64,000 nt of DNA. It comes from a bacterium. GTDB lineage: Bacteria > Patescibacteriota > Microgenomatia > Woykebacterales > RBG-16-39-9b. The position numbers and the translations under genes were made by a program. The stretch covers positions 160,454 to 224,453 of the forward strand of contig JAUYID010000009.1 in the NCBI GenBank assembly GCA_030704665.1, in the 5' to 3' direction. A model generated the notes under the pieces. That model made no database searches. It saw nothing but the letters and a program-made list of their open reading frames with translations, and had not been told where the DNA came from. Below, in pieces: positions 16,086 through 54,075 of the stretch (position 1 is its first letter; every line of letters begins with the position of its first letter).

Positions 16086-16994
16086 ATGAGTTCAGGCCCC
16101 ACCCGCCTGGTTATCGGTGGTATTTTCTGTCTAATCGGATTCTTCTTTGTGCGCACTTTTGTTCATTTGAACGAGAGCGGTTTGCAGTTAGCTGCCTACT
16201 TCGGTGCGGTAGTTGTCGGGGGAGCAATCGGGGTCTATTTGATCCCGTTTCTTACAAACTTTCTCGCCGTTCTCACCGCCAATATTTCAAAGAGAGTTGC
16301 TGCCGAAGTTTCATCTCAGCTTCGTTTACCCTCGATTCCCAGGCAATTCCCACGACGGGAAAAAGAAAATGGCCAAAAATGGATCAACCCAATCTGTGTT
16401 GATACCAGTGCTTTGATTGACGGTAGAATTGCAGAAATCGTCGAATCAGGCTTCCTTTTCGGTACGATCGTTGTTCCCAACTTTATTTTGCTTGAGCTAC
16501 AGCACATTGCTGACTCAGCTGACGATCTCAAGCGAGGTCGGGGAAGAAGAGGTTTGGAGATAATGGAAATGATCAAAAAATCCAGGTATGTGAAAACGGT
16601 CGTTTACAGTGCGCCTGGTGAGGGTTTAAAAAATATTGACGAGAGGCTGCTCAAACTTGCCAAAAACCTCCATGCCAAGATCTTGACTACTGATTTTAAT
16701 CTGAACAAAGTTGCCACTGTCTCAGGGGTCAAGATTTTGAACGTAAATGAGCTTGTCAACGGGATCAAAACCCCTTTCTTGCCTGGTGAAGAGATTGAAG
16801 TCAAGGTTGTTTCTGAAGGAAAAGAAAAAGAACAAGGAGTTGCCTACATGCCGGACGGAACGATGATTGTGGTCGAGAGAGGAGCTGGCTACGTAGGTAA
16901 GAAAATAAAAGTTGTCGTTTCTCGCGTCTTTCAGACCGTTGCTGGACGCATGATTTTCGTCCAAATCCCCGAACAAGTTACTTCCCACAAATAG
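16086..16994 (+). CDS. YacL-like membrane protein with PIN and TRAM domains
   Basis: N-terminal TM helices, a PIN-like nuclease fold, and a C-terminal TRAM beta-barrel (VVERGAGYVGKKIKVVVSRV). Position after clpC-radA matches Bacillus synteny. Confidence 0.65.
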   Translation: MSSGPTRLVIGGIFCLIGFFFVRTFVHLNESGLQLAAYFGAVVVGGAIGVYLIPFLTNFLAVLTANISKRVAAEVSSQLRLPSIPRQFPRREKENGQKWINPICVDTSALIDGRIAEIVESGFLFGTIVVPNFILLELQHIADSADDLKRGRGRRGLEIMEMIKKSRYVKTVVYSAPGEGLKNIDERLLKLAKNLHAKILTTDFNLNKVATVSGVKILNVNELVNGIKTPFLPGEEIEVKVVSEGKEKEQGVAYMPDGTMIVVERGAGYVGKKIKVVVSRVFQTVAGRMIFVQIPEQVTSHK

Positions 16995-25321: not shown

Positions 25322-26026
25322 TTAGATTTCTACACTTTGTCCGTCGTCGAGGACAATTACTTCGACTTTTTCTGGGGCTTGGTTAGCAAACTCATTTGGG
25401 TCCGCTTTCCAGGCCGAGTAATGAATCGGAACGATGCGTTTTGCACCTAGGGATTTTGTTAATTCCCAGGCCTGCGGAAAGCGAACTGTCGGCCCGGCAA
25501 TAGGAATAGCAGCACTTTCAATTTTTAGATCAGCAATTTTGATCCCGTCTCCCGGATCGAAAAAGATTCCGTTTATTACATAACCAGTGTTGGGTGGGCC
25601 GTCTCTACGCTCTGGTTCCAAGTCCATATGGAGCCCGCACTTTCCGTCTTCGGTGATTGTTTCTGTGGTGACTCTGTTATTACAACCACGGCACCAAAGA
25701 CCTTGAAAGTGGGCTAGGTCTATGGGTAAAATTTTGAAATTTTCCACCTCGAATTCGACCCGGTCTTGAACAGGGTTAACTTTTATCCCAGACTTTGCAG
25801 CTAGTTTTACTACCGCTGAGTTAGCATAAATAGGTAGTGAGGTAAAAGCCTTGAGGTGTTCGGCGTCGAAGTGATCTGGGTGTTCGTGAGTAATTAAAAC
25901 AGCATCAACTTTCCCCAGATCAGCAGCGGAAAATTTCTCAAAGGTATAGACTCCCGGATCAATCATCAGGTACTTACCATTTTCTTCGATTATTAAATTG
26001 GATTGGGGGAATTTAGTTATTTTCAT
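25322..26026 (-). CDS. MBL-fold metallo-hydrolase
   Basis: HEHPDHF motif. Start trimmed to the Met of MKITKF because the longer ORF would overlap the tRNA ending at 26032. Confidence 0.6.
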   Translation of the reverse strand: MKITKFPQSNLIIEENGKYLMIDPGVYTFEKFSAADLGKVDAVLITHEHPDHFDAEHLKAFTSLPIYANSAVVKLAAKSGIKVNPVQDRVEFEVENFKILPIDLAHFQGLWCRGCNNRVTTETITEDGKCGLHMDLEPERRDGPPNTGYVINGIFFDPGDGIKIADLKIESAAIPIAGPTVRFPQAWELTKSLGAKRIVPIHYSAWKADPNEFANQAPEKVEVIVLDDGQSVEI

Positions 26027-26031
26027 AGTTT

Positions 26032-26107
26032 TGGTGGACCGAGGGAGATTCGAACTCCCGGCCTTTGCAATGCGAATGCAACGCTCTACCAACTGAGCTA
26101 TCGGCCC
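26032..26107 (-). tRNA. tRNA-Ala (anticodon CGC)
   Basis: Reverse complement gives gggccgatagctcagttggtagagcg ttgca-ttCGCat-tgcaa ... ttcgaat ... tcggtcc-a-cca, with G3:U70. Confidence 0.8.
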
Positions 26108-26123
26108 CGGATGAAATTGTTAA

Positions 26124-26198
26124 TGGTGGACCGGAAGAGACTCGAACTCTCAACCCCCTCCATGCCATGGAGGTGCGCTACCATTGCGCCACCGGCCC
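26124..26198 (-). tRNA. tRNA-Ala (anticodon GGC)
   Basis: Reverse complement gives gggccggtggcgcaatggtagcgc a cctcc-atGGCat-ggagg ... ttcgagt ... ccggtcc-a-cca, with G3:U70. Confidence 0.75.
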
Positions 26199-26262: not shown

Positions 26263-28485
26263 TTATTGTTTTGGAGCTGCTGATTTACTTGCTTCTTGCG
26301 CTTTCTTCTTGATCTCATCCAGCAGTTTTTGCGCTTCCTCTTTTTTCGGATAGCCGGTAGGTACCTGATTGCCGGGCAAAATTTCTAGGTAAGCACCCAA
26401 CTCGTTGACAGCCTGATTTAGACTGTCCACCCCACCTTTGGCGATGAAAGCTTGAGCTAGATCGTAGCGAGCTGGTAGATAGTCAGCTTTAGCTTGAGTG
26501 GCCGACTGCAAGAGTTTAATCGCATTTTCGTAATCCTTTTCAGAGTAATAGAGGGTTGCTAGCGACTGATAAAGCTGCGGGTTGAGCGGGTCGAGTTGAA
26601 TCGCGCGGATGTAAGTATTTTTGGCGTGAATGAGGGCATTGGCTCTTTGATCCCCACCAATATTGCTGTAGATCAAAGCTAAAGATTCCCAGTTGGCCAC
26701 GTTGAGGTTGCTGGTCCCAGGAACTTTCTTGATAGTGATCACACCCAGACCGCGAGTTTCATAGCCAGAGGCGATTTTACCCTCATTTTGTGCTTCACCA
26801 ATCAAACCGACCAGAGTGTTTTGCTCATCTTTGGTGAGTTTACCTCTTTGACTGATTGATTTGGCCAAAGAAAGGTCAGTCAACATCAGGGTGCGGTGGT
26901 AAAGGTCAAAGTAAGAGTTGCTACGGATAGAGGCGAGCAGGTTGTCACGAATGTTTTTCCCGTTGGCGGGTTTTTGATTGGCCTCGTTGACGGCGCGGCG
27001 GAAGTAAACTTCACCGGCATACACTCGGTAACCAACAAAAACCAAGGCCAAAAAGACAAAGATAGCCGGAATGAAGCTAACCAGAGCCAAACTGTTTTGT
27101 TTCGGTCGGCCGGCGGGCTCAACTTGAATGATACCGCCACTGCGCAGTGCTACTAGACGAAGGTCAACGTCATCAACTCCGGCGACACCAGCATCTCTCA
27201 ATAGGGAAAAGGCAGCAGCAGTGATCAAGAGAAAGACTAAGAAGGTCGCAATACCAGAGTTGAAGAAGACCAGACAAAGAGAGAAAACAACAATTGAGAC
27301 TGCCAAAAAGAGGCTCTCTGAGTTCTGCTTGAGGTTCGGAGAATTGAGAACATATTTGATTGTCGGTCTGACGGCGGCAAGGACGATCAGCGAAAAGGCA
27401 ATCAAACCAATGATACCCATCGTTGGGAGAATACCCAAATAGTCGCTTCCGGACTCATCAAAACGAATGTTCCAATTTGAAGTTGAGTTCATTTCAAATG
27501 GTTTGAAGGCGGTGAAATTAAAAAGATACGTCCCTGGTCCGGAGCCAAGAAGAGGTTTTTCGCCAGTTGCTCGAGCGGCAACTTTCCAACTATTAGCGAG
27601 AGGCAGAGTATTTTCTTTGACCAGCTCCAGACTGGCGGGCTTACCCTTTACCATAGGCTTCAAGAGAGTGTTTCGCAGCGATCCAGAAGCAAAGACTAGG
27701 GCGACAACAACGAAGATCGCGACCAGACCACCAGCTAGCCAACGATCAGTCGGCTCGAGAATGAGTTTTGGTGAGAGTACCAGAAAGGCGGCTCCGGCTA
27801 CAGCAAGGCCAATCCAACCCACTCCCATGTTGCTGAAGATAAAGGCAAGACTCATGAAAAAGATTGCCAAGGCGGCGGCGGCTTTCAGAAAGTAGTTTTT
27901 TTCTGAAAAAAGAAGCGAAAAAGCAATTGGCAGGCTTACAACTAAGTAAAGAACCAACTGATTGATACTTCCAATTGGAGTCCAGTTTCTTGCTTTGGTG
28001 TAGGCTTGGGGAAGAAGGTACTGACCAAAGAAAGAAGCCGTGCTCAGAAAACCAAGGACCAAACCACTGGCCACTACAGCCCAAAGCAGAAGACGGCGAG
28101 TTTCTTTGTCCAGGTTGGAGACGGCAACGAAGTAAAGCAAGCTGTAAGAAAGAATCGAGAGAAAGGAGAAGTGGAACCTCGGGTACCAACCGGCAAGAGA
28201 AATGACCTGATCAACACTAAAAACAGTCGAGAGTAAACTAACAGCCAGGAAAATTAAGATAGGTATATCCAGCGCCGTGCGCACCACCCGGACCCGACCT
28301 TCAAGGAGCATTTTTCCAGTCCAGAGAAGAGTCAGGATGGATGCCGAGCCAACGAGAAGAATATATTTGTTGAAGTTGAAGGCCTCACTGGTAAAAGTTA
28401 AAAAGAAAAGCGGAGTGATAAAGGCCAAAGCAACTAGGTAATAACGAATAATAAGATTTAGGGTTTGTGTGTAAGCTTCTTTCAT
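26263..28485 (-). CDS. Polytopic membrane protein of the O-antigen ligase/Wzy_C-like family with C-terminal TPR repeats
   Basis: About 12 predicted TM helices in the first 500 aa, a long external loop, and C-terminal TPR-like repeats (YQSLATLYYSEKDYENAIKLLQSA...). Confidence 0.5.
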   Translation of the reverse strand: MKEAYTQTLNLIIRYYLVALAFITPLFFLTFTSEAFNFNKYILLVGSASILTLLWTGKMLLEGRVRVVRTALDIPILIFLAVSLLSTVFSVDQVISLAGWYPRFHFSFLSILSYSLLYFVAVSNLDKETRRLLLWAVVASGLVLGFLSTASFFGQYLLPQAYTKARNWTPIGSINQLVLYLVVSLPIAFSLLFSEKNYFLKAAAALAIFFMSLAFIFSNMGVGWIGLAVAGAAFLVLSPKLILEPTDRWLAGGLVAIFVVVALVFASGSLRNTLLKPMVKGKPASLELVKENTLPLANSWKVAARATGEKPLLGSGPGTYLFNFTAFKPFEMNSTSNWNIRFDESGSDYLGILPTMGIIGLIAFSLIVLAAVRPTIKYVLNSPNLKQNSESLFLAVSIVVFSLCLVFFNSGIATFLVFLLITAAAFSLLRDAGVAGVDDVDLRLVALRSGGIIQVEPAGRPKQNSLALVSFIPAIFVFLALVFVGYRVYAGEVYFRRAVNEANQKPANGKNIRDNLLASIRSNSYFDLYHRTLMLTDLSLAKSISQRGKLTKDEQNTLVGLIGEAQNEGKIASGYETRGLGVITIKKVPGTSNLNVANWESLALIYSNIGGDQRANALIHAKNTYIRAIQLDPLNPQLYQSLATLYYSEKDYENAIKLLQSATQAKADYLPARYDLAQAFIAKGGVDSLNQAVNELGAYLEILPGNQVPTGYPKKEEAQKLLDEIKKKAQEASKSAAPKQ

Positions 28486-28673
28486 GGCGCTAAAAAACCC
28501 AGGCTAGTGGCAAATAAGCTTGGGCAATAATACCTTTCTCTTGCTTAAGTTAAGAGAGTGCAAGCAAGGTGCACTTAGTCTAGATTCTTCTGAAATTATT
28601 GTCAATTCCTTTTTTGTCACCTTTAGCAGCAAAGGTGACACCAAACTGCCGGCCGAGAGACTCCGCCTAGAAT

Positions 28674-31600
28674 CTACTCCTCCTGATCAACTAAGAGCCA
28701 GTTAAATTCAACCGCCTTTGGCGCTGTCACTGGCGCGTTACTTTCAAGACTACTGTCAAGACCAACAGTGAAAGACTCTCCTTCTTTGACTTCCTTTATA
28801 TATAGACTCAGACCCGCAGTTTTTGTTTTTGGGGTCAGATAAATTAACGATTCAGACTTTACCTTTGGAGTTTGGATCGTCACCTCTTCCTGACCAGCTT
28901 CAAAGCTAGCAGTCCCGGCGATTTGGGCAGTTTTTTTGATTGTTAATCTCTCGCCAATGACCAGCTCTTGAACTCGAACAAAAGTTGCTTGAACAGAGCT
29001 AAAGATAGCCTCACCAAGATCAGAAATCGAAGCAACAACTTCTCCAAAAGCGTTCTTAACTTTAAATTGACTTTGAGCTGAAAGTGAGGCAACTAAGTTC
29101 TTTTCTTCATCAAGACTTAGTTTTGCTAGGGCTGAATCATCCAAAGCCAAGGTGCTGACATCAGTTGGATTCGAAGACCCAGTTTCTTGGTTTTGGGTTT
29201 CGCCTTCGGCGACAGTTGTCAAAAGATCAGAATTTTCTGGTTGGGTGATACTGTCGTCCTGCCAGACGCGGAAATAGTCAACATCAAGATTAGCTGTTCC
29301 GGCGGCGGTCGTTACCGACATCAAAAACATTGACATGGCCGTGTTACCCATAGCTGAAGTAGTTGAAGTCACAGTTCCACAACTAGTCTCGACAATTCCG
29401 TTGGTGACATCATTGTCGACAAAAAACTGAATTTCCGGTGAGGTTGTCGAAGTTGCTTTACGAAACTCAATTCTTAAATAAGAAAAGTTGGTCGTTCCGA
29501 AACCAGTGGTTGGACAGGTGACGACGTTGGCAGCGTTGGTCCCATCCTGGACGACCCCGTACCAGCCAGTGGTGTTGCAAGTCGGAGTGGTTGGGGCTGA
29601 ACAAGTAGAGAAGTAAACTCCTTTGTCCCCGACAACAGGAGCGTTTTTCGCAGTTGCAATGTTGCTGATACCAGCATAGTAGCGGGTTGTAGTCGCACTA
29701 ACATTGGTTCTCACTTTCATGACAACTTGGGGGAAATTGCCGGTATTAAAGATATTGTTGTTGGTGTTGTTGGCATTGGTTCCGATGGACTCGAGACAGG
29801 CGACCCCAGTGCCCGTGTTGTAGCTGGAAGCAATCCGCTCAAAACCGTTGGTTGCGTTGTTGGAGGAGTAAGTACAGGTATTACTAGCATTGGAAGTACC
29901 GGCAATAGAGTTGGTGGTGATTTCACCGGTTTGGGCAGTACAGGAAGTAGCTGGGTTGCCGTATTCACCGCGGGCCTGTTGGTGGCTGGTAGCAGTAAAG
30001 CTAGAGTCCGCACAGTTACCACCGCGAAAACTATTGAATTCTTCGGCGAAGTAGGATTGTTTGCTGACAAAGGCGTCAGCCAAGACCAGGGAGCCAAACT
30101 GGGTGCTGTTGCCGGTCAAGTCACGAATTTGGAGAAGGTTGGTAGAGGCAGCATTATTTAGTGTCAGAGAAGTGACAGAGTTGGCCCCTGCCGTATTGAT
30201 AGTAAAGACAGAGGCAGCTTTGTTAAGTCGAATATCAGCTCCGCTTCCGCTGTTTGCAATACTCAGGACCGCACCAGTTGCACTAGGGTAGGCCTGATTT
30301 AAAGAAAGAATGTTGGCCGAATCGGTGACTGCACTTCCAAAACCGGTCCAACTACTTGTGAAAGAAGCAACTGCTCCGGTGATATTTAAAGCGGTACCAT
30401 CATTAATAGTTGTTCTAGAAAGAGACAGTAGGTTCCCACTTCTGGTGCTAGTTCCGGTATCCGAGAAGACCGCTTCCTCAACATTAACCAAATTCCCACT
30501 GATCGTGGCCCCACTCCAATTAAGGAAGTTAGGGTTGAGTTGAATATCCAAAAGTCTACCACTGCTTAGAGTGTTTTCAGCGGTAATCTGAACAGCTTTC
30601 CCCTCGGTCAGGGCACCTGCAGAAGTAACAAAGCCAGTACCACTGGTAAGCGCATCGACTGAGGCGGTGATAGCGGTTGCAGTTTGGACTCCACTGAAAA
30701 GAGAAATAGTTGAAGAAGCGTTGGTGTTGCCGATGTTGATCAGACTTATCCCCGGAGAGTCGTTGTTGTAGCCAATATTTATTTGCTTGTTGGAAGTTCC
30801 GGCACCAAGATCAATTTTTGAGGTAGCCGCAGCACCAGTAGGTACCTCTAGACTAATTGTGTGGACGTTGCCACCAAGATCTTCTAAAGTGGAGATACTA
30901 AAGTAGGTATTACTACCGTTTTTAATAGTCAGAGCGTTGCTCGTGCTGTTGGCCAAAGCAAGGTTGCTCGCCCCAACGAAGTTGATGGCGTTGTCCCAAC
31001 CGGCACCAATATTGATTGCATTTTCGGTCGCTTGGGCATCGGCAGTAATACCGGCAATATCGATACCATTGAAAGTGTTGCTTGAGCCAGTGTGGTCAGC
31101 GTTGGTGTAGTTGAGATAAAGACCGCGGAAAGTATCTGACCCGTCAAAGGCAGCTAAAGAGCCGGAAAGGGTCAAAACATCAGCCCCGTTGCCAGCCGTG
31201 TTGACGCCGTTGTAAGTCCCGGTAGTGAAAGTCGAAACACCAGCTGAAGTAATTCTTGTAATAGCACTGAGCAAAAGGTTCCCACTAGTCAAATCAATAT
31301 TGCCCCCGGTTTCGTTGAGGATAGAGTCCCCAATGTGACTGCCGTCAGGAGTAAATTTGGCAATTCTACCGTCAGTTCCGCTTCCGCCAATGATTCCACC
31401 TGAGCCTGCACAGTTGCCCAAGGTTAGTAAGCAAATTGAGTCTGAAGCAGCACTTGAGACGGGAATAATCACTGTTTTGTCCGCTCCTGGGTCAGCGGCA
31501 GTCAGTTCAATTTCAAAACTGTCTGCAGTTGCGCCTTCAAAGAAGAGACTGTTGCCATCGCCACCAGCGGTAGCGGTGAAGGCGGCTCCAGAAGCGATAT

Positions 31601-34600
31601 CTCCGACGGCGATAATGTCACCGGCAGCTCCGACGCCAGTAATTTCTTTCCAGGTTAAGGTGTTTCCAGTTTGCCAGGTAAGAACATAATCAGCGGAAGG
31701 GGGAAGAGAATCGTCGTCAGGTAAAGTGTAAATTCGGTCAGTGGTGATCGCGTCCGGAGCTTTGAAGCCAGCATAGCCGCTACCGTTGGCAGCAAGCTCG
31801 AGAAAGCGCAGTTCACCAGTATTTCCTGCCCCGCCTCCCGTGGGGTTTAGTAGTAAGCCAACAAAGGTAGGAGAACTTGTAGTTAGTAGGTCTTGGTTCA
31901 AACTGACATCAGCTCCACTCACAGTTAAGGTTCTTGAAGTTGTCCCACCGGAAAGAGAGAAACCGTCTGCGTTGGCTGAAGCCAATGTCTTAGTACTTCC
32001 AGCACCTGTATCAACAACTGCATAACCGGAGACATCAGGGAAGACTAAGGAACGTATTCCGGTAGGGGCGGTTCCAATATATAAATACTGGCCCGAGCTA
32101 GTGTCTCCAAAAACTAGGTTTCCCGAAACAATGTTTAGGTTCGTACTTCCAGACGGGTTGTTGATTTTTAAGTTGCAGCCAATACCAAGGACAGAATTGC
32201 AGACTTCGATCGTTTTATCACTTGCATCGCTGAAAAGTAGGTTAGCATCACTGATAGTCAAGGTTCCACTGGAATTTATTGATAGAGCATCACCCCCGTC
32301 ACCAATGCTGGCTGAAGTAGTAAAATTGATATCTCCACTTACAGTTAGCTCATCGCCGATAACCGCGCTCGAGTTGGTTTGAAGAGTGGTTGCGACCAAA
32401 AGACTGCCACCCAAAGTAGTATTGCCGTCAAAATCAACCCGAAATTCTTCGGTAGCACAGCTAGCACCAGTGCAGAGGTGTATTAGATCGCCACTAGCTC
32501 CGGTTTTGTTGATGTAAATTGAGTTTCTCGTGGTGTTGTCTATGTCAGCAAGGGCTGAGCCCGGGTTGTCTGGGTCTTCTGGAGCAAGATGGACAAAAGC
32601 GTTGCCGACGACACCTCCACTGGCGGAACAAGAAGCAATCAGGTTTGTGGTTGTATTGTTACGACAGAGAACTTCTGTATTTAGATCAGGAGCAGCTAAA
32701 GATCCGGTTAGTTCAATGTTGGCATCAAACCGGACTAGAGATTGAGAGTGAATGCCATAGTCCCAGCCAGTTCCAACACTGATTCCTGTTTCTGACCCCG
32801 AACCCCCCGTGATTCCCGAAATCGAAATCCCGTTGATGGTGCTGGTGTTGTTACTGGGAGCCGAGATTGTTAGTGGAGTTGTGTTGATATAAGGAGTAGC
32901 GAGATTTAAAGCTCCGAAATTGTTAAGAGTAAAAATATTGGTTCCACCATAGGCAACTCTCAAATAATTTCCAGAAGTAGTTGCCGCAATCGTAGCAGAG
33001 TAGGCAGTTGCCGGACCAGCAGTAATGCTATTTACAAAAACCCGAGCGTAATAGCGGGGTGTGACACCGGTCTCTGCACTTTGTATCCAACCACCCGGAA
33101 CAGCCCAAGTGACAGTACCGTCACTTGTTAAATTGCTAGTTCCGTCGGAGACCCCAGTCAAACTACTCCAAGTATCACAGGCCGTTGCGGTGGAAGCGTT
33201 GGCACTACAATATTCCCAGCTAACGCTAGTTGGGGCCCCCGCCAAAGTAGCAAAATCAATATAAACGCGGCTAAAGGGGGTACTTTCGCCGAAATTGAGG
33301 CTGTCATTTGCAGAAGCCCCAACCGTAAAAGGAGTACCCCCCAAACTAGCTGCCTCAGACGTTACCGTAGAAGTGGGTGTTCCATTGATAGAGTAGAGGA
33401 CATGGTCGAAAACCCCGTCAGTCGAAGAAGCCCCACTAATATCGATATAGTCTCCGGTGAAAGTTGCCGCCCGATTTTCTAAACGAATCACATCAGTTGT
33501 TGAAGTATTGCTGGTTGCAGCGCGCGCGTAAATGTTGGCGCTATCTGCTCCTTCTGAATAGAAAGCGTAGTCGTTGGTTCCTCCGGTCAAGTTTAGAGCG
33601 TGGATCCCGTATTGATTAGTTAAGGTTCCACCAGTGGGAACTTGGTTGTTGATCAAAAAGCCGTTTAAGTTAGTTACGGTTACTCCAGTGGTTACTCCAG
33701 AGCCAAGAAAGGAACTTGAGGTGGAGAATTGGTTGACATTGCTAACTGTCAAAGAAGCGGTTCCAGGATCATCAACTAGTAAATCAAAAAAACTAGAGTA
33801 GTTTACCAGGGCAGAAAGGGTGTGGGCTCCGGTGGCGCTGCTAGCTACCTCTACGTTTGCGACATTGGATAAGTTGATGTTGTTGGTAAGTATATTTACT
33901 CCTGGTTGGTTAATAAGGTAAGTCGGGGAAATAATTTGAAAAAGATCTGCTCCGGCCAAAATATCGGGAGAAGTGTTGACGATAATTGTTGGGTCAAAAG
34001 TTAGAGCTGCAAGACTAGCCGCGGCAATATTTTTTACATAATTACCACCAACGTGGATGACTGGGCTTTGGATAGCCGTGACTTCGGTCACTGCGTTGGC
34101 ATCAGCCGGGTCCACATTAATTTCGATAGCGTTTTCCCAACCCGTGCCGATTCTTAAACCCGCTTCATTGATAGCATTGTTGGGAGTCACATTGCTGACT
34201 AAAATGGCATTTAAAACCGGTGTTCCGGAGGGGGAGCCGCCAGTATAGCCACTAACATCTACAGTTAGACCGTTTAAATCGCCAGTCAAAGTAGTTGCAG
34301 AGGAAGCCTCTACATTGATCAAACCGCCGCTACTAAGGGAACTACGCACATCCAGAGTGCTAGTCGGAGAGTTGGTTCCAAGGCCTAGATAGTTGTTGGT
34401 GTTATTAAAAAAGAAATTTGAATTGTCCTGAGTCAGAAGCCCGCCGCTGCCGGCAAAAATTACCGAGCCAGGAGTAAAACTAGAAACTGCCTGGAGAGCT
34501 ACTGTTCCGGAGAGATTGGGCAAAGTGTAAGTCCGCTCAGAGCTTAAAGCGGTTGCAGTTAAAAGGCCTTGAGAGCCGTTGTGAAAATAAAGTTCGTTGC

Positions 34601-35786
34601 CCGCCCCACCGTCAGTAAAAGCTGCTCCGGCTAAGATATCACCAATTGCGGTTATATCACCGTTTTTACCTTGACCAGCACAATTGCCACTATTGAGACA
34701 CAAAGTACCAGATTGATCAGGTAAAGAGATGTTTCGATCGGAAGTTAAGGTTGCAGTTTCAAGGAGAGCGCTAAAACTCCCACTTGGGAAGGCGACTCCT
34801 TCTTTGGCATGAACTAGAGAATTAAAATCAGTTTCGACATTGACATTAAAATAAGGATCGATACTGCTTGCCAGTACTACCCCTCCGTTGATTGTCTTGC
34901 TTAAGTCTAGACTTTCAAAAGCAGGACGGGAAAAGAAAAGGCCTTTGGCAAAACTGCCAATCAGTAAAGTTAAAGGAAGAAAAATCAAAATTAGGAAAAC
35001 AGGCAGGGCAAAATTGCGCGAGAGTTTTAAACTCTTGGCAAAACCCCCCGCCAGAAAGGAAGGCTTCTGAGCTTTTATCTCCTCAAGGCTAGGGGAGAGA
35101 GAAACTTCAGGAAAATTTAATTGAGGACGAGCCGGAATAGTGGTGAAAGTTGGCAGTAGAGTGATAGGAAAAGATGTACTTTGATGATTTTGTTGAGCTG
35201 CTTGTCTTGTTTCTGTCTCACTATTTTCTTTATCCTCATTTTTTTCTTCGACCTGTCTTTCTCTCAACAAAGCCTGGATCGTTTTACCTGATTTTAGTTC
35301 TTGGTCAATACCAACTAGGGTTTCAACGACTGACTCTCGATAAGCCCCAGTTGGTGCTGAGAGAGAAAAAGACTTACGGGTGGCATTGGGAAGAAGACCA
35401 ATCTTGGTGTAATAGCGCAGACGGTTGCTTGGATCCCCCTTACCAAAATCAACACCGGCATTTTTAGCTCGGCTAATGATTTTTTCGATCGGTAGCAGGT
35501 CATCCTTATTTTCCCGAAGAATTGCTTGGATTGATTCACCGGACTTGAGGTGGCGATCAATTTCAACAATTTTTTCAACGACTGACTCTCGATAAGCGCC
35601 GGCTGGAGCAGAGCTAGCAAACGATTTTCGGGTCGCTTTTGGCAAAAGCCCAATCTTGGTGTAGTAGCGTAGACGGTTGTAGGGATCTCCTTTACCGAAG
35701 CTAGCACCAAGGTTTTTGGCACGTTCAATAACTTCTGGGAAAGAAATGAGGAGGTCGCTTGAATTGGGCAGATTTCCTTTAGCCAT
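28674..35786 (-). CDS. Giant (2370 aa) membrane-anchored protein. N-terminal tandem MerR-HTH-like repeats, one TM helix, then about 2100 aa of Ser/Thr/Gly/Asn-rich extracellular region. Shares a C-terminal module with the 1645-aa giant protein.
   Basis: Two about 70-aa repeats containing NRLRYYTKIGLLPKATRKSF...GAYRESVV (compare the MerR motif TIRYYE..GLL.P.R...GYR.Y). TM FALPVFLILIFLPLTLLIGSF at about aa 235. C-terminus YFAEEFNSFRGG ... DVDYFRVWQDD ... SLIYLTPKTKTAGLSLYIKE ... FNWLLV is paralogous to 48867-49900. Confidence 0.75.
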   Translation of the reverse strand: MAKGNLPNSSDLLISFPEVIERAKNLGASFGKGDPYNRLRYYTKIGLLPKATRKSFASSAPAGAYRESVVEKIVEIDRHLKSGESIQAILRENKDDLLPIEKIISRAKNAGVDFGKGDPSNRLRYYTKIGLLPNATRKSFSLSAPTGAYRESVVETLVGIDQELKSGKTIQALLRERQVEEKNEDKENSETETRQAAQQNHQSTSFPITLLPTFTTIPARPQLNFPEVSLSPSLEEIKAQKPSFLAGGFAKSLKLSRNFALPVFLILIFLPLTLLIGSFAKGLFFSRPAFESLDLSKTINGGVVLASSIDPYFNVNVETDFNSLVHAKEGVAFPSGSFSALLETATLTSDRNISLPDQSGTLCLNSGNCAGQGKNGDITAIGDILAGAAFTDGGAGNELYFHNGSQGLLTATALSSERTYTLPNLSGTVALQAVSSFTPGSVIFAGSGGLLTQDNSNFFFNNTNNYLGLGTNSPTSTLDVRSSLSSGGLINVEASSATTLTGDLNGLTVDVSGYTGGSPSGTPVLNAILVSNVTPNNAINEAGLRIGTGWENAIEINVDPADANAVTEVTAIQSPVIHVGGNYVKNIAAASLAALTFDPTIIVNTSPDILAGADLFQIISPTYLINQPGVNILTNNINLSNVANVEVASSATGAHTLSALVNYSSFFDLLVDDPGTASLTVSNVNQFSTSSSFLGSGVTTGVTVTNLNGFLINNQVPTGGTLTNQYGIHALNLTGGTNDYAFYSEGADSANIYARAATSNTSTTDVIRLENRAATFTGDYIDISGASSTDGVFDHVLYSINGTPTSTVTSEAASLGGTPFTVGASANDSLNFGESTPFSRVYIDFATLAGAPTSVSWEYCSANASTATACDTWSSLTGVSDGTSNLTSDGTVTWAVPGGWIQSAETGVTPRYYARVFVNSITAGPATAYSATIAATTSGNYLRVAYGGTNIFTLNNFGALNLATPYINTTPLTISAPSNNTSTINGISISGITGGSGSETGISVGTGWDYGIHSQSLVRFDANIELTGSLAAPDLNTEVLCRNNTTTNLIASCSASGGVVGNAFVHLAPEDPDNPGSALADIDNTTRNSIYINKTGASGDLIHLCTGASCATEEFRVDFDGNTTLGGSLLVATTLQTNSSAVIGDELTVSGDINFTTSASIGDGGDALSINSSGTLTISDANLLFSDASDKTIEVCNSVLGIGCNLKINNPSGSTNLNIVSGNLVFGDTSSGQYLYIGTAPTGIRSLVFPDVSGYAVVDTGAGSTKTLASANADGFSLSGGTTSRTLTVSGADVSLNQDLLTTSSPTFVGLLLNPTGGGAGNTGELRFLELAANGSGYAGFKAPDAITTDRIYTLPDDDSLPPSADYVLTWQTGNTLTWKEITGVGAAGDIIAVGDIASGAAFTATAGGDGNSLFFEGATADSFEIELTAADPGADKTVIIPVSSAASDSICLLTLGNCAGSGGIIGGSGTDGRIAKFTPDGSHIGDSILNETGGNIDLTSGNLLLSAITRITSAGVSTFTTGTYNGVNTAGNGADVLTLSGSLAAFDGSDTFRGLYLNYTNADHTGSSNTFNGIDIAGITADAQATENAINIGAGWDNAINFVGASNLALANSTSNALTIKNGSNTYFSISTLEDLGGNVHTISLEVPTGAAATSKIDLGAGTSNKQINIGYNNDSPGISLINIGNTNASSTISLFSGVQTATAITASVDALTSGTGFVTSAGALTEGKAVQITAENTLSSGRLLDIQLNPNFLNWSGATISGNLVNVEEAVFSDTGTSTRSGNLLSLSRTTINDGTALNITGAVASFTSSWTGFGSAVTDSANILSLNQAYPSATGAVLSIANSGSGADIRLNKAASVFTINTAGANSVTSLTLNNAASTNLLQIRDLTGNSTQFGSLVLADAFVSKQSYFAEEFNSFRGGNCADSSFTATSHQQARGEYGNPATSCTAQTGEITTNSIAGTSNASNTCTYSSNNATNGFERIASSYNTGTGVACLESIGTNANNTNNNIFNTGNFPQVVMKVRTNVSATTTRYYAGISNIATAKNAPVVGDKGVYFSTCSAPTTPTCNTTGWYGVVQDGTNAANVVTCPTTGFGTTNFSYLRIEFRKATSTTSPEIQFFVDNDVTNGIVETSCGTVTSTTSAMGNTAMSMFLMSVTTAAGTANLDVDYFRVWQDDSITQPENSDLLTTVAEGETQNQETGSSNPTDVSTLALDDSALAKLSLDEEKNLVASLSAQSQFKVKNAFGEVVASISDLGEAIFSSVQATFVRVQELVIGERLTIKKTAQIAGTASFEAGQEEVTIQTPKVKSESLIYLTPKTKTAGLSLYIKEVKEGESFTVGLDSSLESNAPVTAPKAVEFNWLLVDQEE
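35260..35745 (-). repeat. Tandem direct repeat of about 210 bp, two copies, encoding the duplicated N-terminal HTH-like modules of the giant protein
   Basis: Nucleotide-level similarity between 35290-35500 and 35500-35740, e.g. ccaatcttggtgta(a/g)tagcg(c/t)agacggttg repeated. Confidence 0.6.
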
Positions 35787-35842
35787 GGCAGGTTGGGTTT
35801 AAGGCTATTTCTCGCGACTTACCGTCACGGGAAATGTACCTA

Positions 35843-35871
35843 AATTGTACCCATTATATTAATGTAAGTCA
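35843..35871 (-). promoter_or_regulatory. Sigma70-like promoter (TTGACT-17-TACAAT) for the giant protein gene, with a near-palindrome in the spacer
   Basis: Minus strand reads caaacTTGACTtacattaatataatgggTACAATttagg. The spacer contains cattaatataatg, a near dyad. Confidence 0.45.
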
Positions 35872-35914
35872 AGTTTGAAAAAAGGACAGAAAAAGTGTTT
35901 TTGCGTGGCTATTT

Positions 35915-35923: not shown

Positions 35924-35945
35924 TTAGTTTATTGAAAAGCCTGCC

Positions 35946-36722
35946 ATGAAACTTCGAGTAATTTTTTTGCTTATTTTCATAACCCTTTTTTTAACAAGCA
36001 AAGCTTTTGTTTTGGCCCAAGATTTCAGCAACGGACAAATAGCAAAAAATCTGCCGGTTGAAGACAAGGGTGTGTCTAGCGGTGACATAGTTTCCAAAAG
36101 TGACACTGGTCTAGTTCGAGCCAGCAGCGCCTATGACAAAAACCTTTTCGGGGTCGTCGTTGAAGATCCGAGTTTGAGTCTAAACAAAACATCCTCAGAG
36201 AGTTTCCCAATAGTTTCTTATGGTGTATCAAAAGTTAAATTAAGTGATCAAAATGGATCAATAAAAAAGGGCGACTTCGTCACCTCAAGCAAAACTCTTG
36301 GCGTTGGTCAAAAAGCGACAGACTCTGGTTTTGTCCTGGGTAGAGCTTTGGAGGACTTAAACTCAAAAACTGGACAAGTCTCAGTTTTTATCAATATTCA
36401 GTACAAGGCCGCCGACAGTCCGCAAAATGCCGTTTCTAAGGCAATTTCCAAGGCGGCTGAAGCTTTTACTTCTCAGCTTGAAAACCCTGAAAATTTTCCC
36501 GTGATACTGCGTTACTTACTCGCGGTTATCTTGGCTGGTCTGTCCTTCGGCTTTGGTTTCCTTTCCTTTGTTCGGGCCTTACGACGAGGCATTGATGCCA
36601 TTTCCAGAAATCCTTTGGCCAAAGGTAGCATCCAGTTTGTGGTCTTTCTGAATTTGGTCGGAGTCTTTGTGATCAGTGCCGCAGGAGTTGGTCTCGCTCT
36701 TTTTATCATTTTTTATAAATAA
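35946..36722 (+). CDS. ATP synthase F0 c-subunit-like hairpin fused to a secreted N-terminal domain of about 180 aa. Atypical first gene of the atp operon.
   Basis: Signal peptide MKLRVIFLLIFITLFLTSKAFVLA, then a soluble beta-rich domain. The C-terminal 75 aa read AVILAGLSFGFGFLSFV...ISRNPLAKG...FVVFLNLVGVFVISAAGVGLALFIIF: a two-TM hairpin with GxGxG helix 1 and an R-N-P loop. Helix 2 has no Glu or Asp at the ion-binding position. No atpB precedes it. Confidence 0.5.
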   Translation: MKLRVIFLLIFITLFLTSKAFVLAQDFSNGQIAKNLPVEDKGVSSGDIVSKSDTGLVRASSAYDKNLFGVVVEDPSLSLNKTSSESFPIVSYGVSKVKLSDQNGSIKKGDFVTSSKTLGVGQKATDSGFVLGRALEDLNSKTGQVSVFINIQYKAADSPQNAVSKAISKAAEAFTSQLENPENFPVILRYLLAVILAGLSFGFGFLSFVRALRRGIDAISRNPLAKGSIQFVVFLNLVGVFVISAAGVGLALFIIFYK

Positions 36723-48866: not shown

Positions 48867-51800
48867 TTATTCCTTATTCACTATCAACCAGTTGAAACGA
48901 AGGTTCTGGGTTGCCGAGGCACTTGCTTCGCCCGGTAAATCGCCACGGTTTCGTTGTAACCCAACCACAAAGCCCTCACCACTTCGTTTTTCTTTGATAT
49001 AAAAAGTGAGTCCATCGGTTTTGGTCGTTGGGGTGATATAAATCAAAGAAGAGTCAGTTATCTTTTCTGATTCGATGAAGACTTCATTTGCTCCCGGATC
49101 GAAGCTGATCTCACCAGCCACTTGAGAATCGTCTTTGACGACTAGCTCACCAAAAATCAGTTTTCTGAACTCACCTACCCAGGAAGTCACCGAGAGGAAA
49201 ACAGCTTCACCTGAGTTTGAGATCCAAGAGACAGCTTTGCCTGAGGACTGGTACCAAATACCGGCAGCGTTGTTCAGGACTTGATCGAGCTGGTCTTCAG
49301 TGAGTTTGTCAGCGACTAGATCAGAAGCTTGACCTACGACTTGGTGAGATCGAGCCGCAACTGAATCAGGAACATCCTGAACTTCTTGCTCGGGGACCGG
49401 GTAGCTGGGAGCATCGTCCTGCCAGACACGAACATAGTCAATATGAAAATTGAAGTTGCTGTTGAGAGAAGCATTAGCATGAGTATTGGCAAACCAACCC
49501 CAAGCCAAACCATCGACTGTAACCGAACCAAACGCCGGACAGGCAGTCCAACTGACTCCATCGGAGACATCACCATCCACGTAAGCATTGACACTAGCAG
49601 CAGAGGCACCAGCGCTAACGACTTCAATCCTCATGACCGCAAAGTTGGTGGTTGAGATGGTTACACCACAATCTTTGGTACTGATAGTAGCGCCATTCTG
49701 CAAACTGACATTCCAAGTCGTGTCGTTACAGGTACTGGCAGTGGTGGGGTCAGTACAGTTGCTGAAATAAATTCCGCTATCGTCACTGGTGTCCATAATG
49801 TCTTGAGCATCAGTGCTAACTCCTGAGCCGGCCGTACCAAGATTGCCCAGACCGATGAAGTAGCGTGAATTCGTATCCCCAGAGGCGGCTCGGGTCGGTC
49901 TGACCTTAAAAAGGGCAACTGGCAGGTTGTTACTATTAAACATAAGCTGAGCGTCATTGGCAGTGTTGGTACCGATGTACTCGAGACAGGCCGCGTTGCC
50001 AGTCCCATCGGCAGCATTAATTTCTTCATAACCACCATTTGAGTCCGCCACTGAGCGAAAAGCACAGGCTGCAGTTGCGCCTAGGGTGACGGCAACAGAA
50101 ATTGGTCCGGTGGAAGCGGTACAGTTGTTGGTGTTGCCGTCCCCACCACGGGCGTTGACTGTCTCAGCAATGCAACCGGCACCAGCGGTGCGAAGGCGGT
50201 TAAATTCTTCTGCATAGTAACTATTGACACTGGCAAAAGCTCCACCAATCGCCAGACCGCCGAAGTTGGTATTCAAATCCTTGAACTGGAAGAGGGTGTT
50301 GGAAGAAGTGTCTTGCAGGTTTAAGACAGCAGTGTTGTCTGTAGCGGTCAATTTTAGCACTGAAGTCGCCCCGGAAAGCTGGACTTCAGTGTCTGAGTCA
50401 GTGGAAATAACCAAGTCTCCAGTTCCCGCCGGTGTAACGGTGATCGCCCGGTTACTTGCGCTAGTAATGTCAGCCCCACCACTGCTCAGAGTTCCGGTAA
50501 AACTGATACCGGTATCAAAAGTACCGGCGACCGTGATGCCGTTGGCTGTGGCCGAAGCCCCACCATCCTTTAAAGTTAAATTCAGACCGATTTGGTTGCC
50601 AGAAGAGGAGTTGGGGACGGTGTAGTTGGTGGAGAGGTCAATGTCGAGTCCAGTGAGGGCCGCGCTCTGGCTCACGGCAGTGACTGCGCCAACATCGAGA
50701 ATATTGCCGGAAGTTTGAGTGGGCGTGAATTTAAACTCACCGTTTTCTTGAAATTCAAGGGTATGAGCAGTAAGGCTCCCGTTGCGGTAAAATACCCAGC
50801 CAGTGACATTGTCAGCGCTAGCGTTGCCATTGTCTACGCCAATGTATAGGTGAGCGGAGGCGGAGATATTACCGTGTTGCCCCAATCCTCCAAGGTCAGA
50901 CACAGTTAAAGTAAGTTGCCCGCCGCTGTCTCCGACCTTAAAACTACCATCCTCATCTATATTTACGCTTGGAACCCCAGCCCCTCCGTTGGTAATTGTT
51001 AAAGTGTCAGCCGCCGCGTTGTTTAAATCAATAGTGAACGAACCGGAAGAAAGGATTTTGTTGGTACCAAGATTAATACCGTTGGTACAGGAACAACTAG
51101 ACAGATCAATGCCGTCAGTAATAACACCGGAATTTGTAGTTTCGATCAGAACACCGTTGCTGATGGTGGAGGCTGGGTAGTCGGAAACTATGTGGAGACC
51201 GTTTGTTAGAGTAGAAGTAGATGCCCCACAAACTGCCGTAATACATTGCGATGAGGCGTAGAAAGCATCAGTTCCAACCACACTGTGATCACCTACTTCA
51301 ATTGAACCTCCTAAAATACTGTAAGAGAAACCAGTGGTTATATTTCCTTCAGAGGCTCCACTCCCCAATTTTACACCGGTAGACAAAGTTGTACCTGTTG
51401 GTACAGCTATACTAAGACCAATTCCAGCACTAGTTACAGAAATTGCAGTTGTTGTTGTGCCAATGGAAATTGCAGTTGTGGTCGTTGCGCCCAAACTTAT
51501 TCCCGTGGTCATCGTACCAGAGAGGCTAATGCCAGTTGTAAAAGTACCACCGGCGGTGTCAACAAGATTGATACCGTTGGTGATATTACCGCCGGAATTG
51601 GTTATCTCAATGCCGTCGGTGATACCGGCGTTGGCAGCCGAATCGATTTTGAGAGCATTACTTACTACTATGGAGCTGCCGGTCGAAGTGTCCAATTGCT
51701 GCAGTAGTAGCAGGTTCTCGGTTACGTTGTCAGTCGATAAGGAATCGTTTTGAGCGTTGTTAATGACGACTCCAGAATCTGTTCCGGCTGAAGTCCCAGC

Positions 51801-53845: not shown

Positions 53846-54075
53846 ACTGATTGATAAATCAGGCAGTTATACTAAAAATAGTAGCAGAAATTTGCCCCTT
53901 TGTCAAACCAAATTGAGTAGAAAAATTAACGTTTTAAATTCAGCAAAAATGGCCTCGAAATTGACCCGAAAGTGCCTTTTTACAACAAAATAAAATTACT
54001 TGATAAATCAAGTAGTTATACTTGAATAACGTCACGCTCCAGCGGGTCATAAATCGGGTAGTTATACTGATTGAA
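53846..54075. repeat. Three direct copies of a 23-bp motif (T[G/C]ATAAATC-NNN-[C/T]AGTTATACT), each with an internal TGAT-AA-ATCA dyad
   Basis: Copies at about 53849-53872, 54001-54022 and 54047-54069. Copy 1 overlaps the transcribed leader of the giant-protein promoter. Confidence 0.6.
53878..53906 (-). promoter_or_regulatory. Sigma70-like promoter (TTGACA-17-TACTAT) of the 1645-aa giant protein gene
   Basis: Minus strand reads ggTTGACAaaggggcaaatttctgcTACTATttttagtataactgcctgatttatcaatcag...aaaaggaag...ATG. Repeat copy 1 lies in the 5' leader just downstream of the -10. Confidence 0.5.

Follow-up and report, generated by a model that had tools for sequence, protein, structure and literature searches.

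A giant membrane-anchored Patescibacteria protein with tandem MerR-type winged helices, and a conserved palindrome as candidate operator of its family

The subject of this analysis is a giant gene on the reverse strand of a 64,000-nt stretch of Patescibacteria DNA (the window). It encodes a protein of 2370 aa, hereafter the giant, in which two tandem MerR-type winged-helix modules are followed by a linker, one hydrophobic helix and a very long ectodomain. The reading that we prefer, and to which we would give an even chance, is that the giant is a membrane-tethered one-component regulator of the minimal MerR type represented by TnrA and GlnR. A preliminary description of the gene had offered three options for this architecture (a one-component transmembrane regulator, a protein processed to release its DNA-binding part, or a MerR module co-opted for protein-protein contacts), and the first of these is now the best supported, through the indirect evidence of a conserved, helically phased 17-bp palindrome that is tied to the protein family. 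The open reading frame (ORF) given in that description, 28674-35786, proved exact when compared with the ORF list and the translation; it is intact, and an identical protein is called on two public contigs. The coordinates of all features are collected in Table 1.

MerR-type modules and the family they define

The resemblance of the N-terminus to MerR proteins had been noted by eye, and profile searches bore it out. A fragment comprising the N-terminal 240 aa matched the Pfam family MerR (PF00376) at 31.6 bits (cut-off 28.2), with both modules matched, and MerR_1 at 21.8 bits (cut-off 21.6); the full-length giant scored 20.7 bits against MerR, which is below the cut-off. A profile built from 32 trimmed modules (profile A2) had no PDB matches other than MerR-family and TnrA chains; the best was Bacillus MerR 4ua1 (E 1.3e-4), in an alignment that spans the recognition helix, the wing and helix 4. 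PDB searches with the single N-terminal sequence or a full-length profile returned nothing real. The winged helix-turn-helix (HTH) order (b)-a1-a2-b-b-a3-a4 and the signature RYY..GL..P.R...G.Y, which mark the MerR superfamily at the level of the fold, are both present. The modules are confirmed, with statistical support, as MerR-type winged helices. A two-module relative, P0136, matches MerR_1 at 7.7e-16 and bridges the subfamily to the mainstream MerR family. The two repeats of the giant are real, being 69-73% identical over 77-84 aa, but each is about 85 aa long and not 70 aa as first proposed. In an AlphaFold2 (AF2) model, module 1 has a predicted local distance difference test (pLDDT) score of 92-98, and module 2 is poorly modelled because the homologues aligned to module 1.

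What accompanies the winged helix in canonical MerR regulators is missing. In Pfam and NCBIfam no match extends beyond the HTH part to a metal, drug or redox effector domain, and the CueR, CadR and NmlR models match only over their own N-terminal 15-63 positions, far below cut-off. As judged from the sequence and the model, there is no coiled-coil helix a5, since module 2 begins no more than 5 residues after a4 of module 1; after module 2 there is a charged E/K/Q-rich stretch without hydrophobic heptads, and then the Pro-rich linker and the transmembrane (TM) helix. Each module carries a net positive charge. In TnrA, Arg31 and Tyr32 contact DNA and alanine substitution of Arg28/Arg31 abolishes binding (PMC4335299). 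The equivalents of Arg31 and Tyr32 are R40 and Y41, which are invariant across the family, and in the family alignment the position of Arg28 holds an invariant Asn that adjoins an invariant Arg, such that the TnrA/GlnR combination of a MerR-like winged helix without coiled coil and a conserved recognition-helix Arg, Arg and Tyr is retained. Given the absence of a coiled coil and an effector domain and the atypical HTH loop of the family, the closest relatives at low root-mean-square deviation are the minimal TnrA and GlnR proteins.

The linker of 77 residues between module 2 and the membrane shows no heptad pattern by eye, and comparable low-complexity linkers occur in homologues. The single TM helix of the preliminary description is real, but it lies at aa 258-280 and not near residue 235; it peaks at a 19-aa Kyte-Doolittle hydropathy of 2.64 and is the only such segment in 2370 aa. 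An N-terminal signal peptide is absent: within aa 1-250 the 15-residue hydropathy does not exceed 1.04. Lys plus Arg residues flanking the helix number 3 on the N side versus 2 on the C side in the giant, and across the family (n=77) the N side is richer in 42 members and poorer in 12. The homologue P0126 has a like ectodomain type behind a plain N-terminal anchor. An N-in/C-out topology, as had been proposed, is the sensible reading of these simple hydropathy and charge rules, which favor it through the absent signal peptide and the positive-inside bias.

Directly C-terminal of the TM helix, the giant homologues share the motif DPFLTINVETDxNxLL. The ectodomain is rich in T (12.5%), S (11.6%), G (10.6%), A (10.5%) and N (8.5%), and this biased composition is of the extracellular type that had been anticipated, but the region is not the repeat array it had been taken for: Tandem Repeats Finder detected no tandem repeats, and there are only two internal duplications, both weak and dispersed (347-400/1347-1415 and 966-1013/1557-1602). 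No PHROG match was obtained for the giant, and a relationship to phage tail fibres was set aside. An AF2 model of the last 490 residues (m9e717271b2e5) has a low overall pLDDT of 57, with two parts that are usable. One, aa 1955-2177, is a jelly roll (local pLDDT about 60-80) for which Foldseek retrieved from the PDB L-type and legume lectins, botulinum toxin receptor-binding domains and GH16 enzymes, with E values down to 7.5e-7 and TM-scores of about 0.5. The other, aa 2284-2367, is a small beta domain (pLDDT 77-91). The conserved C-terminal module of the preliminary description is indeed shared, both with the second giant of the window (g2), at 36% identity over 562 aa (E 3e-71), and with P0121, at 75% identity. 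P0121 (3068 aa) is the closest homologue of the giant overall (1603 bits).

A profile search of 1.84 billion representative proteins yielded 345 proteins or clusters at E <=1e-3 and 265 at E <=1e-10. Word-based searches and a genome scan placed all members in Patescibacteria (WWE3, Woykebacteria and relatives), with the window protein closest to Woykebacteria (71% module identity). The N-terminal module that was to be sought in other giants is accordingly found in about 345 Patescibacteria clusters, giants among them, and it marks a sharply bounded subfamily rather than MerR proteins in general. Each of the 80 genome loci encodes exactly one hydrophobic helix after the module. Members fall into length classes of about 220, 560-900 and 1000-3068 aa; most are of about 220 aa and consist of the module, the TM helix and an ectodomain of about 90 aa with an F-x-W-W end. 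A hidden Markov model (HMM) of the C-termini of these small forms matches aa 2284-2352 of the giant (E 5e-7) and also the ends of g2, P0121, P0123 and P0126. Because the HMM of the small ectodomain matches the C-terminus of the giant, the giants are the chassis of the small form with 1400-2800 residues placed between TM helix and terminal domain. Small-family members have a weak, sub-threshold match to Pfam K1-lyase_C. Tandem duplication of the module recurs in P0131-P0136 (among them P0136, a complete small form), P0145, P0146 and other members, while the closest relatives of the giant have a single module; the recurrence fits a need for two winged helices per site.

The family also keeps its genomic company. 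In 52 of the 59 eligible family loci the next gene downstream, on the same strand, encodes a homologue of the Wzy_C-TPR membrane protein, and this is also the case in L002-L005 and L008. In small-form loci the gene is followed by a same-strand Wzy_C-TPR gene (700-780 aa), and then, on the other strand, by Obg, a LysM-M23 peptidase and Rho. The order in the window is giant, Wzy_C-TPR, two tRNA-Ala genes, a 256-aa ORF, Obg and LysM-M23, and the closest giant locus, L008, keeps the order giant, Wzy_C-TPR, Obg, LysM-M23. Since this synteny with Wzy_C-TPR is shared, the giant is the positional orthologue of the small protein.

One orthologous giant differs in its domain content. Giant P0124 of locus L007 (contig CAYSLI010000001.1, 6001-14260) is 2620 aa long and combines PTL_trimer and FG-GAP with an FGE-sulfatase domain at its C-terminus. 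Its gene has an IS1595 transposase upstream and a bAvd gene after it, the latter being a signature of the target of a diversity-generating retroelement. The bAvd gene beside P0124 implies that some family members may be hypervariable at the tip.

A conserved palindrome in phase with promoters

By comparing the upstream regions of giant orthologues we identified a family palindrome of 17 bp, TTTCCCGTnACGGGAAA, which is present upstream of every giant or medium homologue examined. The promoters described here are consensus matches and not mapped starts. In the window the palindromic element begins 10 nt downstream of the -10 of the putative giant promoter, whose TTGAC-N17-TAnAAT arrangement is kept in the orthologous loci L006, L008, L010 and L011. 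In small-form loci the stop codon of the MerR-like gene precedes the palindrome by 8-60 nt. It was found at the expected place, with <=3/16 mismatches, in 58 of 80 genome loci, the chance expectation being about 0.04 per 20-kb locus (our own estimate from the information content of the motif, and not the output of a tool). In a reverse test, metagenome contigs were fetched by the exact palindrome alone. A family gene lies beside the palindrome in 13 of 35 low-GC contigs, and two further low-GC contigs carry either a Wzy_C-TPR gene (L093) or, with the giant itself lying beyond the contig end, an ATP-synthase flank like that of giant locus L007 (L130); only one of 45 high-GC contigs matches either family HMM.

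A TTGAC -35 follows the palindrome in all 49 motif-bearing small-form loci, at gaps of 5-8 nt (37 loci), 15-18 nt (9 loci) or 26-27 nt (3 loci), and these classes are steps of about one helical turn, which places the palindrome in helical phase with the Wzy_C-TPR promoter. It is present in 45 of 55 loci in which Wzy_C-TPR is the next gene and in none of the seven in which it is not. The arms vary in 44 distinct ways that are mostly uncompensated (at position 5, 17 broken versus 3 compensated pairs), and it is the sequence of the arms that is conserved and not base pairing, as expected of a protein site over an RNA stem. Taken together, these properties point to a candidate site for a transcription factor that would contact RNA polymerase from one face of the helix, and the only DNA-binding-type protein consistently encoded beside it is the MerR-like membrane protein.

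Three other interpretations of the DNA around these promoters were rejected. MerR-type promoter logic requires a 19-20-nt spacer with the operator inside, but the spacers of the Wzy_C-TPR promoter-like sites and of the giant promoter are 17 nt, and the palindrome lies after the -10 or upstream of the -35. Promoter remodelling of the MerR type is not indicated given the 17-nt spacer of the giant promoter, and activation by DNA untwisting is inapplicable because the candidate site lies outside the spacer. The palindrome is not an intrinsic terminator of the small gene, as it is followed by a -35 and not by a U-tract. Lastly, the AT-rich near-palindrome in the promoter spacer that had been put forward as the operator does exist, at 35854-35867 (10 nt, 90%), but it is not conserved in orthologous promoters.

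Additional copies of the palindrome, and sequences that resemble it, were encountered elsewhere. In L010 (10540-10556) and L014 (10186-10200) a second copy lies within the giant coding sequence, about 600 nt downstream of the first and just past the TM-coding part; both contain the 15-nt core TTCCCG-N3-CGGGAA with 0 mismatches and encode SRDGK in an otherwise unconserved linker, and the window gene has no such copy. A near-match to the core, TTCCCACGACGGGAA (1 mismatch in 12 core positions), occurs in the window at 16347-16361, inside a 302-aa ORF at 16086-16994(+); about 0.14 such matches are expected per 64 kb by our estimate, and it may be due to chance. Low-GC contigs with an exact palindrome and no adjoining family gene include L112 (9040-9090), L165 (1869-1960) and L096 (9788), and among contigs of this type one has two tandem copies and one has TTGACA 6 nt downstream. 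Going by their sequence, these contigs could possibly hold further targets of the same factor. Between the stop codon of the giant and the Wzy_C-TPR promoter-like site of the window (TTGACA-17-TAGACT, 28577-28605) there is a different inverted repeat, TGTCACCTTT-GCTGC-TAAAGGTGACA at 28618-28650 (-), which ends 9 nt upstream of the -35, the relative position of the family palindrome in small-form loci, and is followed by an A-run and not a U-run.

Proposed mechanism, rival explanations and known systems

If the giant is a membrane-tethered regulator, it would be an N-in/C-out single-pass protein with its two tandem minimal MerR winged helices in the cytoplasm and an external fibre of about 2090 aa whose last parts are a lectin-like and a small beta domain, and the winged helices would bind the palindrome from the membrane. 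In genomes with the small form, the one-face site upstream of the Wzy_C-TPR -35 would be in an activator-type position, with activation probably from about -51. In the giant lineage the site would have moved just past the -10 of the giant's own promoter, where it could serve autoregulation, probably repression. We propose that ligand or host-glycan binding, oligomerisation or tension at the ectodomain would set how the cytoplasmic domains pair on the DNA, and that pairing in the giant is either brought about by ectodomain-driven oligomerisation or hard-wired, i.e., permanent, through the tandem duplication. The modelled lectin-like tip suggests glycan or host-surface binding as the input.

Several observations weigh against this mechanism. 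The palindrome could be bound by another factor. The 5-residue linker between the modules may not permit a two-fold symmetric arrangement on a palindrome, the "turn" of the HTH is replaced by a conserved 9-residue loop (FGKGDPY) that is unlike canonical MerR geometry, and the predicted topology derives from hydropathy and charge. The site is located upstream of the -35 in small forms and after the -10 in giants, and the window palindrome is degenerate (14/16). With a second arm, the window element forms a stable RNA hairpin (-16.7 kcal/mol, z -4.0), and in L006 the arms are separated by 20 nt, a distance more fitting for an RNA stem than for a rigid dimer site.

These last points are at the core of one rival, in which the palindrome is an RNA element with no relation to the MerR-like modules, for example a 5' stabilising hairpin of the 7-kb mRNA or a site of intercistronic processing. 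In addition to the folding energy of the window leader, it would account for the second arm that restores pairing across loops of 5 nt in the window, 5 nt in L008 and 20 nt in L006, and for the start of the element about 10 nt past the -10, close to where the transcript probably begins. We nonetheless regard it as very unlikely, in view of the mostly uncompensated variants and the conservation of the arm sequence itself, and of the small-form position upstream of the Wzy_C-TPR promoter, where phasing to the -35 would be meaningless for RNA; there is also no U-tract and no Rfam match at this place in the window. Phasing similarly speaks against a structural tether that, in the manner of RacA, would pin the locus, or DNA in general, to the membrane without any switch, and that could favor the coupling of transcription and translation to the insertion of a very long envelope protein. 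The stepwise spacing to the -35 is the signature of a factor that contacts RNA polymerase, and the site co-occurs with the Wzy_C-TPR promoter and not with the regulator's own gene, making a tether improbable in our judgment.

The remaining two rivals concern the protein. The MerR-fold modules might not bind DNA at all and instead recruit a cytoplasmic partner, for instance a factor for secretion or the cell envelope, or an Hsp70/Hsp40 chaperone in the way that CbpM and DafA do, with the palindrome belonging to some other regulator. Such an adaptor seems unlikely to us: its invariant residues are the recognition-helix and wing residues that contact DNA in TnrA and GlnR, the modules are basic, members of 220 aa keep the module despite having little to export, and the gene is accompanied by a conserved phased palindrome with no other DNA-binding protein consistently nearby. 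Alternatively, a signal at the ectodomain could trigger regulated intramembrane proteolysis, whereupon a freed tandem winged-helix fragment would bind DNA. The TM helix of the giant contains two prolines (NFALPVFLILIFLPLTLLIGSFA), which can favor site-2 cleavage, and the flexible 77-residue linker would permit release, but prolines are absent from the TM core in 70 of 77 members, no site-1 or site-2 protease is conserved in the neighbourhood, and membrane-bound regulators of the ToxR/CadC type act unreleased (PMC10269533). Release is therefore, in our opinion, a most improbable explanation.

The preferred reading, that of a membrane-tethered regulator, can be set against characterized systems. 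TnrA and GlnR have no coiled coil, recognize 17-bp sites, act on optimally spaced promoters and are controlled through weak dimerisation (PMC4335299). The giant family is like them in its winged helix without coiled coil or effector domain, the retained recognition-helix Arg and Tyr, the 17-bp palindrome and the 17-nt spacers, and a membrane anchor or the tandem duplication could replace their control by weak dimerisation. The family differs from them in that the AF2 model has no alpha-1' dimer-interface helix (aa 1-12 are disordered and a short strand, 13-15, precedes a1), in the conserved 9-residue HTH-turn loop, in the lack of a glutamine-synthetase-binding tail, in the sequence of the site, TTTCCCGTnACGGGAAA versus the operator TGTNAN7TNACA (both 17 bp), and in being always membrane-anchored and restricted to Patescibacteria. 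With canonical MerR proteins (MerR, CueR, SoxR, BmrR) the family shares the winged-helix fold and the xRYYxxxGLLxPxRxxxGxY signature, but not the long coiled coil, the effector-binding domain or the promoter spacing. RacA, the chromosome anchor of Bacillus subtilis, has a head that is a minimal winged helix like that of the giant and of TnrA/GlnR, without coiled coil or effector domain in the head itself; unlike the giant, it is a soluble protein with a coiled coil that reaches the membrane via DivIVA and has neither TM helix nor ectodomain.

RsgI-type anti-sigma factors of cellulolytic clostridia offer a parallel in layout, with a regulatory domain at the cytoplasmic N-terminus, one TM helix and a large ectodomain that binds carbohydrate, so that glycan sensing at the surface is linked to transcription; they act by sequestering a sigma factor and not by binding DNA, and their folds are unrelated to that of the giant. 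A transmembrane transcription regulator (TTR) is defined as a polypeptide that combines a DNA-binding domain with one or more TM regions, and a census of 50,302 TTRs includes 386 MerR and 350 MerR_1 cases (PMC10269533). The giant, with its MerR matches and single hydrophobic segment, has this structure, and in view of the MerR entries of the census the kind is already known. "Patescibacteria" is absent from the main text and the text-form supplementary files of that paper. ToxR, CadC and TcpP, which act from the membrane, are built likewise: their DNA-binding domain is N-terminal and cytoplasmic, one TM helix follows, and the sensor domain lies outside. Characterized TTRs have OmpR-type winged helices and periplasmic domains of 100-250 aa, whereas in the giant the fold is MerR-type and tandem, with no match to Trans_reg_C (OmpR-type, ToxR/CadC-like), and the ectodomain reaches 2090 aa. 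The architecture had initially been called undescribed. This stands in so far as we found in the literature no relevant description of the subfamily, the giant forms, the tandem duplication, the Wzy_C-TPR partner, the palindrome or a characterized membrane-anchored MerR regulator, but module plus TM helix occurs in the roughly 345 clusters, some of them auto-annotated as "MerR family transcriptional regulator", and MerR TTRs are counted in the census.

How Patescibacteria regulate their genes has hardly been explored, and no function has been assigned to their giant surface proteins. The present analysis provides a defined family, a 17-bp site with promoter phasing and a candidate target, Wzy_C-TPR, an envelope protein that may glycosylate or assemble surface structures. 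The family is a natural series on one chassis, from a 220-aa sensor to lectin-tipped fibres of 3000 aa. Should the binding prove true, this would be the first characterized membrane-anchored MerR-type regulator in the literature that we consulted, and an episymbiont could couple contact with the host surface directly to transcription.

A second giant and other features of the window

The second giant of the window, the paralogue g2, carries an unrelated DNA-binding-type fold, integrase core-binding-like, at the same position. Its internal repeat score is 85, versus 28 +/- 5 for shuffles, it has a weak TM helix at about aa 239-257, and its ectodomain ends in the lectin-like and terminal beta domains of the first giant. 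No homologues of the g2 N-terminus were found. Upstream of g2, within about 215 nt, are three copies of a 19-nt motif, GTATAACTnCnnGATTTAT, that has no further copy in the 64-kb window (expected 0.02). A promoter-like site, TTGACA-17-TACTAT, precedes the proximal copy, which begins immediately past its -10, the same relative place as that of the palindrome of the first giant. Because two unrelated duplicated DNA-binding folds hold one position, each with a private promoter motif, nucleic-acid binding is likely to be the selected function, as this would otherwise be hard to explain, and g2 suggests that the principle is general and not a one-off fusion. A broader proposal, which we consider rather doubtful, is that giant fibres are wired directly to the chromosome by exchangeable DNA-binding pairs (MerR-like, or integrase core-binding-like as in g2) and private 5' motifs, such that contact or tension at the lectin tip would control transcription and tether the fibre/Wzy_C-TPR locus to the membrane with no relay protein. 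If true, these ultra-small bacteria, which have few conventional signalling systems, would possess a general "touch-to-DNA" device made of one protein.

Table 1. Features of the window discussed in the text, with positions and strand.
Feature	Position	Strand	Description
Giant gene	28674..35786	(-)	2370 aa: two MerR-like modules, linker, one TM helix, ectodomain of ~2090 aa; ORF list and translation
MerR-like winged-helix module 1	35502..35759	(-)	aa 10-95
MerR-like winged-helix module 2	35247..35501	(-)	aa 96-180; counted as second Pfam stretch
Charged, Pro-rich linker, predicted cytoplasmic	35016..35246	(-)	aa 181-257; translation; no hydrophobic segment
Single TM helix/signal anchor	34947..35015	(-)	aa 258-280; sole segment with 19-aa Kyte-Doolittle mean >1.6
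Conserved juxtamembrane ectodomain motif SSIDPYFNVNVETDFNSLVHAKEG	34791..34868	(-)	~aa 307-332; common to giant homologues
Concanavalin-A-like lectin/jelly-roll domain	29256..29924	(-)	~aa 1955-2177; AF2 model and Foldseek; medium confidence
Terminal beta domain	28686..28937	(-)	aa 2284-2367; signature ectodomain of whole family; small-family HMM and pLDDT
Sigma-70-like promoter of giant	35844..35872	(-)	TTGACT, 17 nt, TACAAT; consensus scan 10/12, putative
Candidate operator/leader element	35808..35834	(-)	TTTCCCGTGACGGTAAG at 35818-35834, 14/16 to TTTCCCGTnACGGGAAA; overlapping half-site GTCGCGAGAAA to 35808
Wzy_C (O-antigen-ligase-like) membrane protein with C-terminal TPR	26263..28485	(-)	740 aa; Pfam Wzy_C 6.5e-10 and TPR
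Unannotated ORF	25322-26092	(-)	256 aa
Second giant, g2	48867-53804	(-)	1645 aa; two tandem Phage_int_SAM domains, Pfam 5.4e-14
19-nt motif GTATAACTnCnnGATTTAT, three copies	53854-53872, 54003-54021, 54049-54067	(-)	upstream of g2

Some smaller features were also recorded. The start context CCTGCCATG is common to the giant and to the divergent gene that heads the ATP synthase cluster (35784-35792 and 35940-35948), which makes a perfect 9-nt inverted repeat with its halves 147 nt apart; there is no obvious Shine-Dalgarno sequence, and orthologous giants also start in the context CTGCC(A)ATG. The two tRNA-Ala genes (CGC, GGC) between the Wzy_C-TPR gene and the 256-aa ORF are located at 26032-26198. 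At the beginning of the window (12-4197) there are genes for tRNA-Ile and tRNA-Ala, followed by the 23S and 5S rRNA genes (999-4197).

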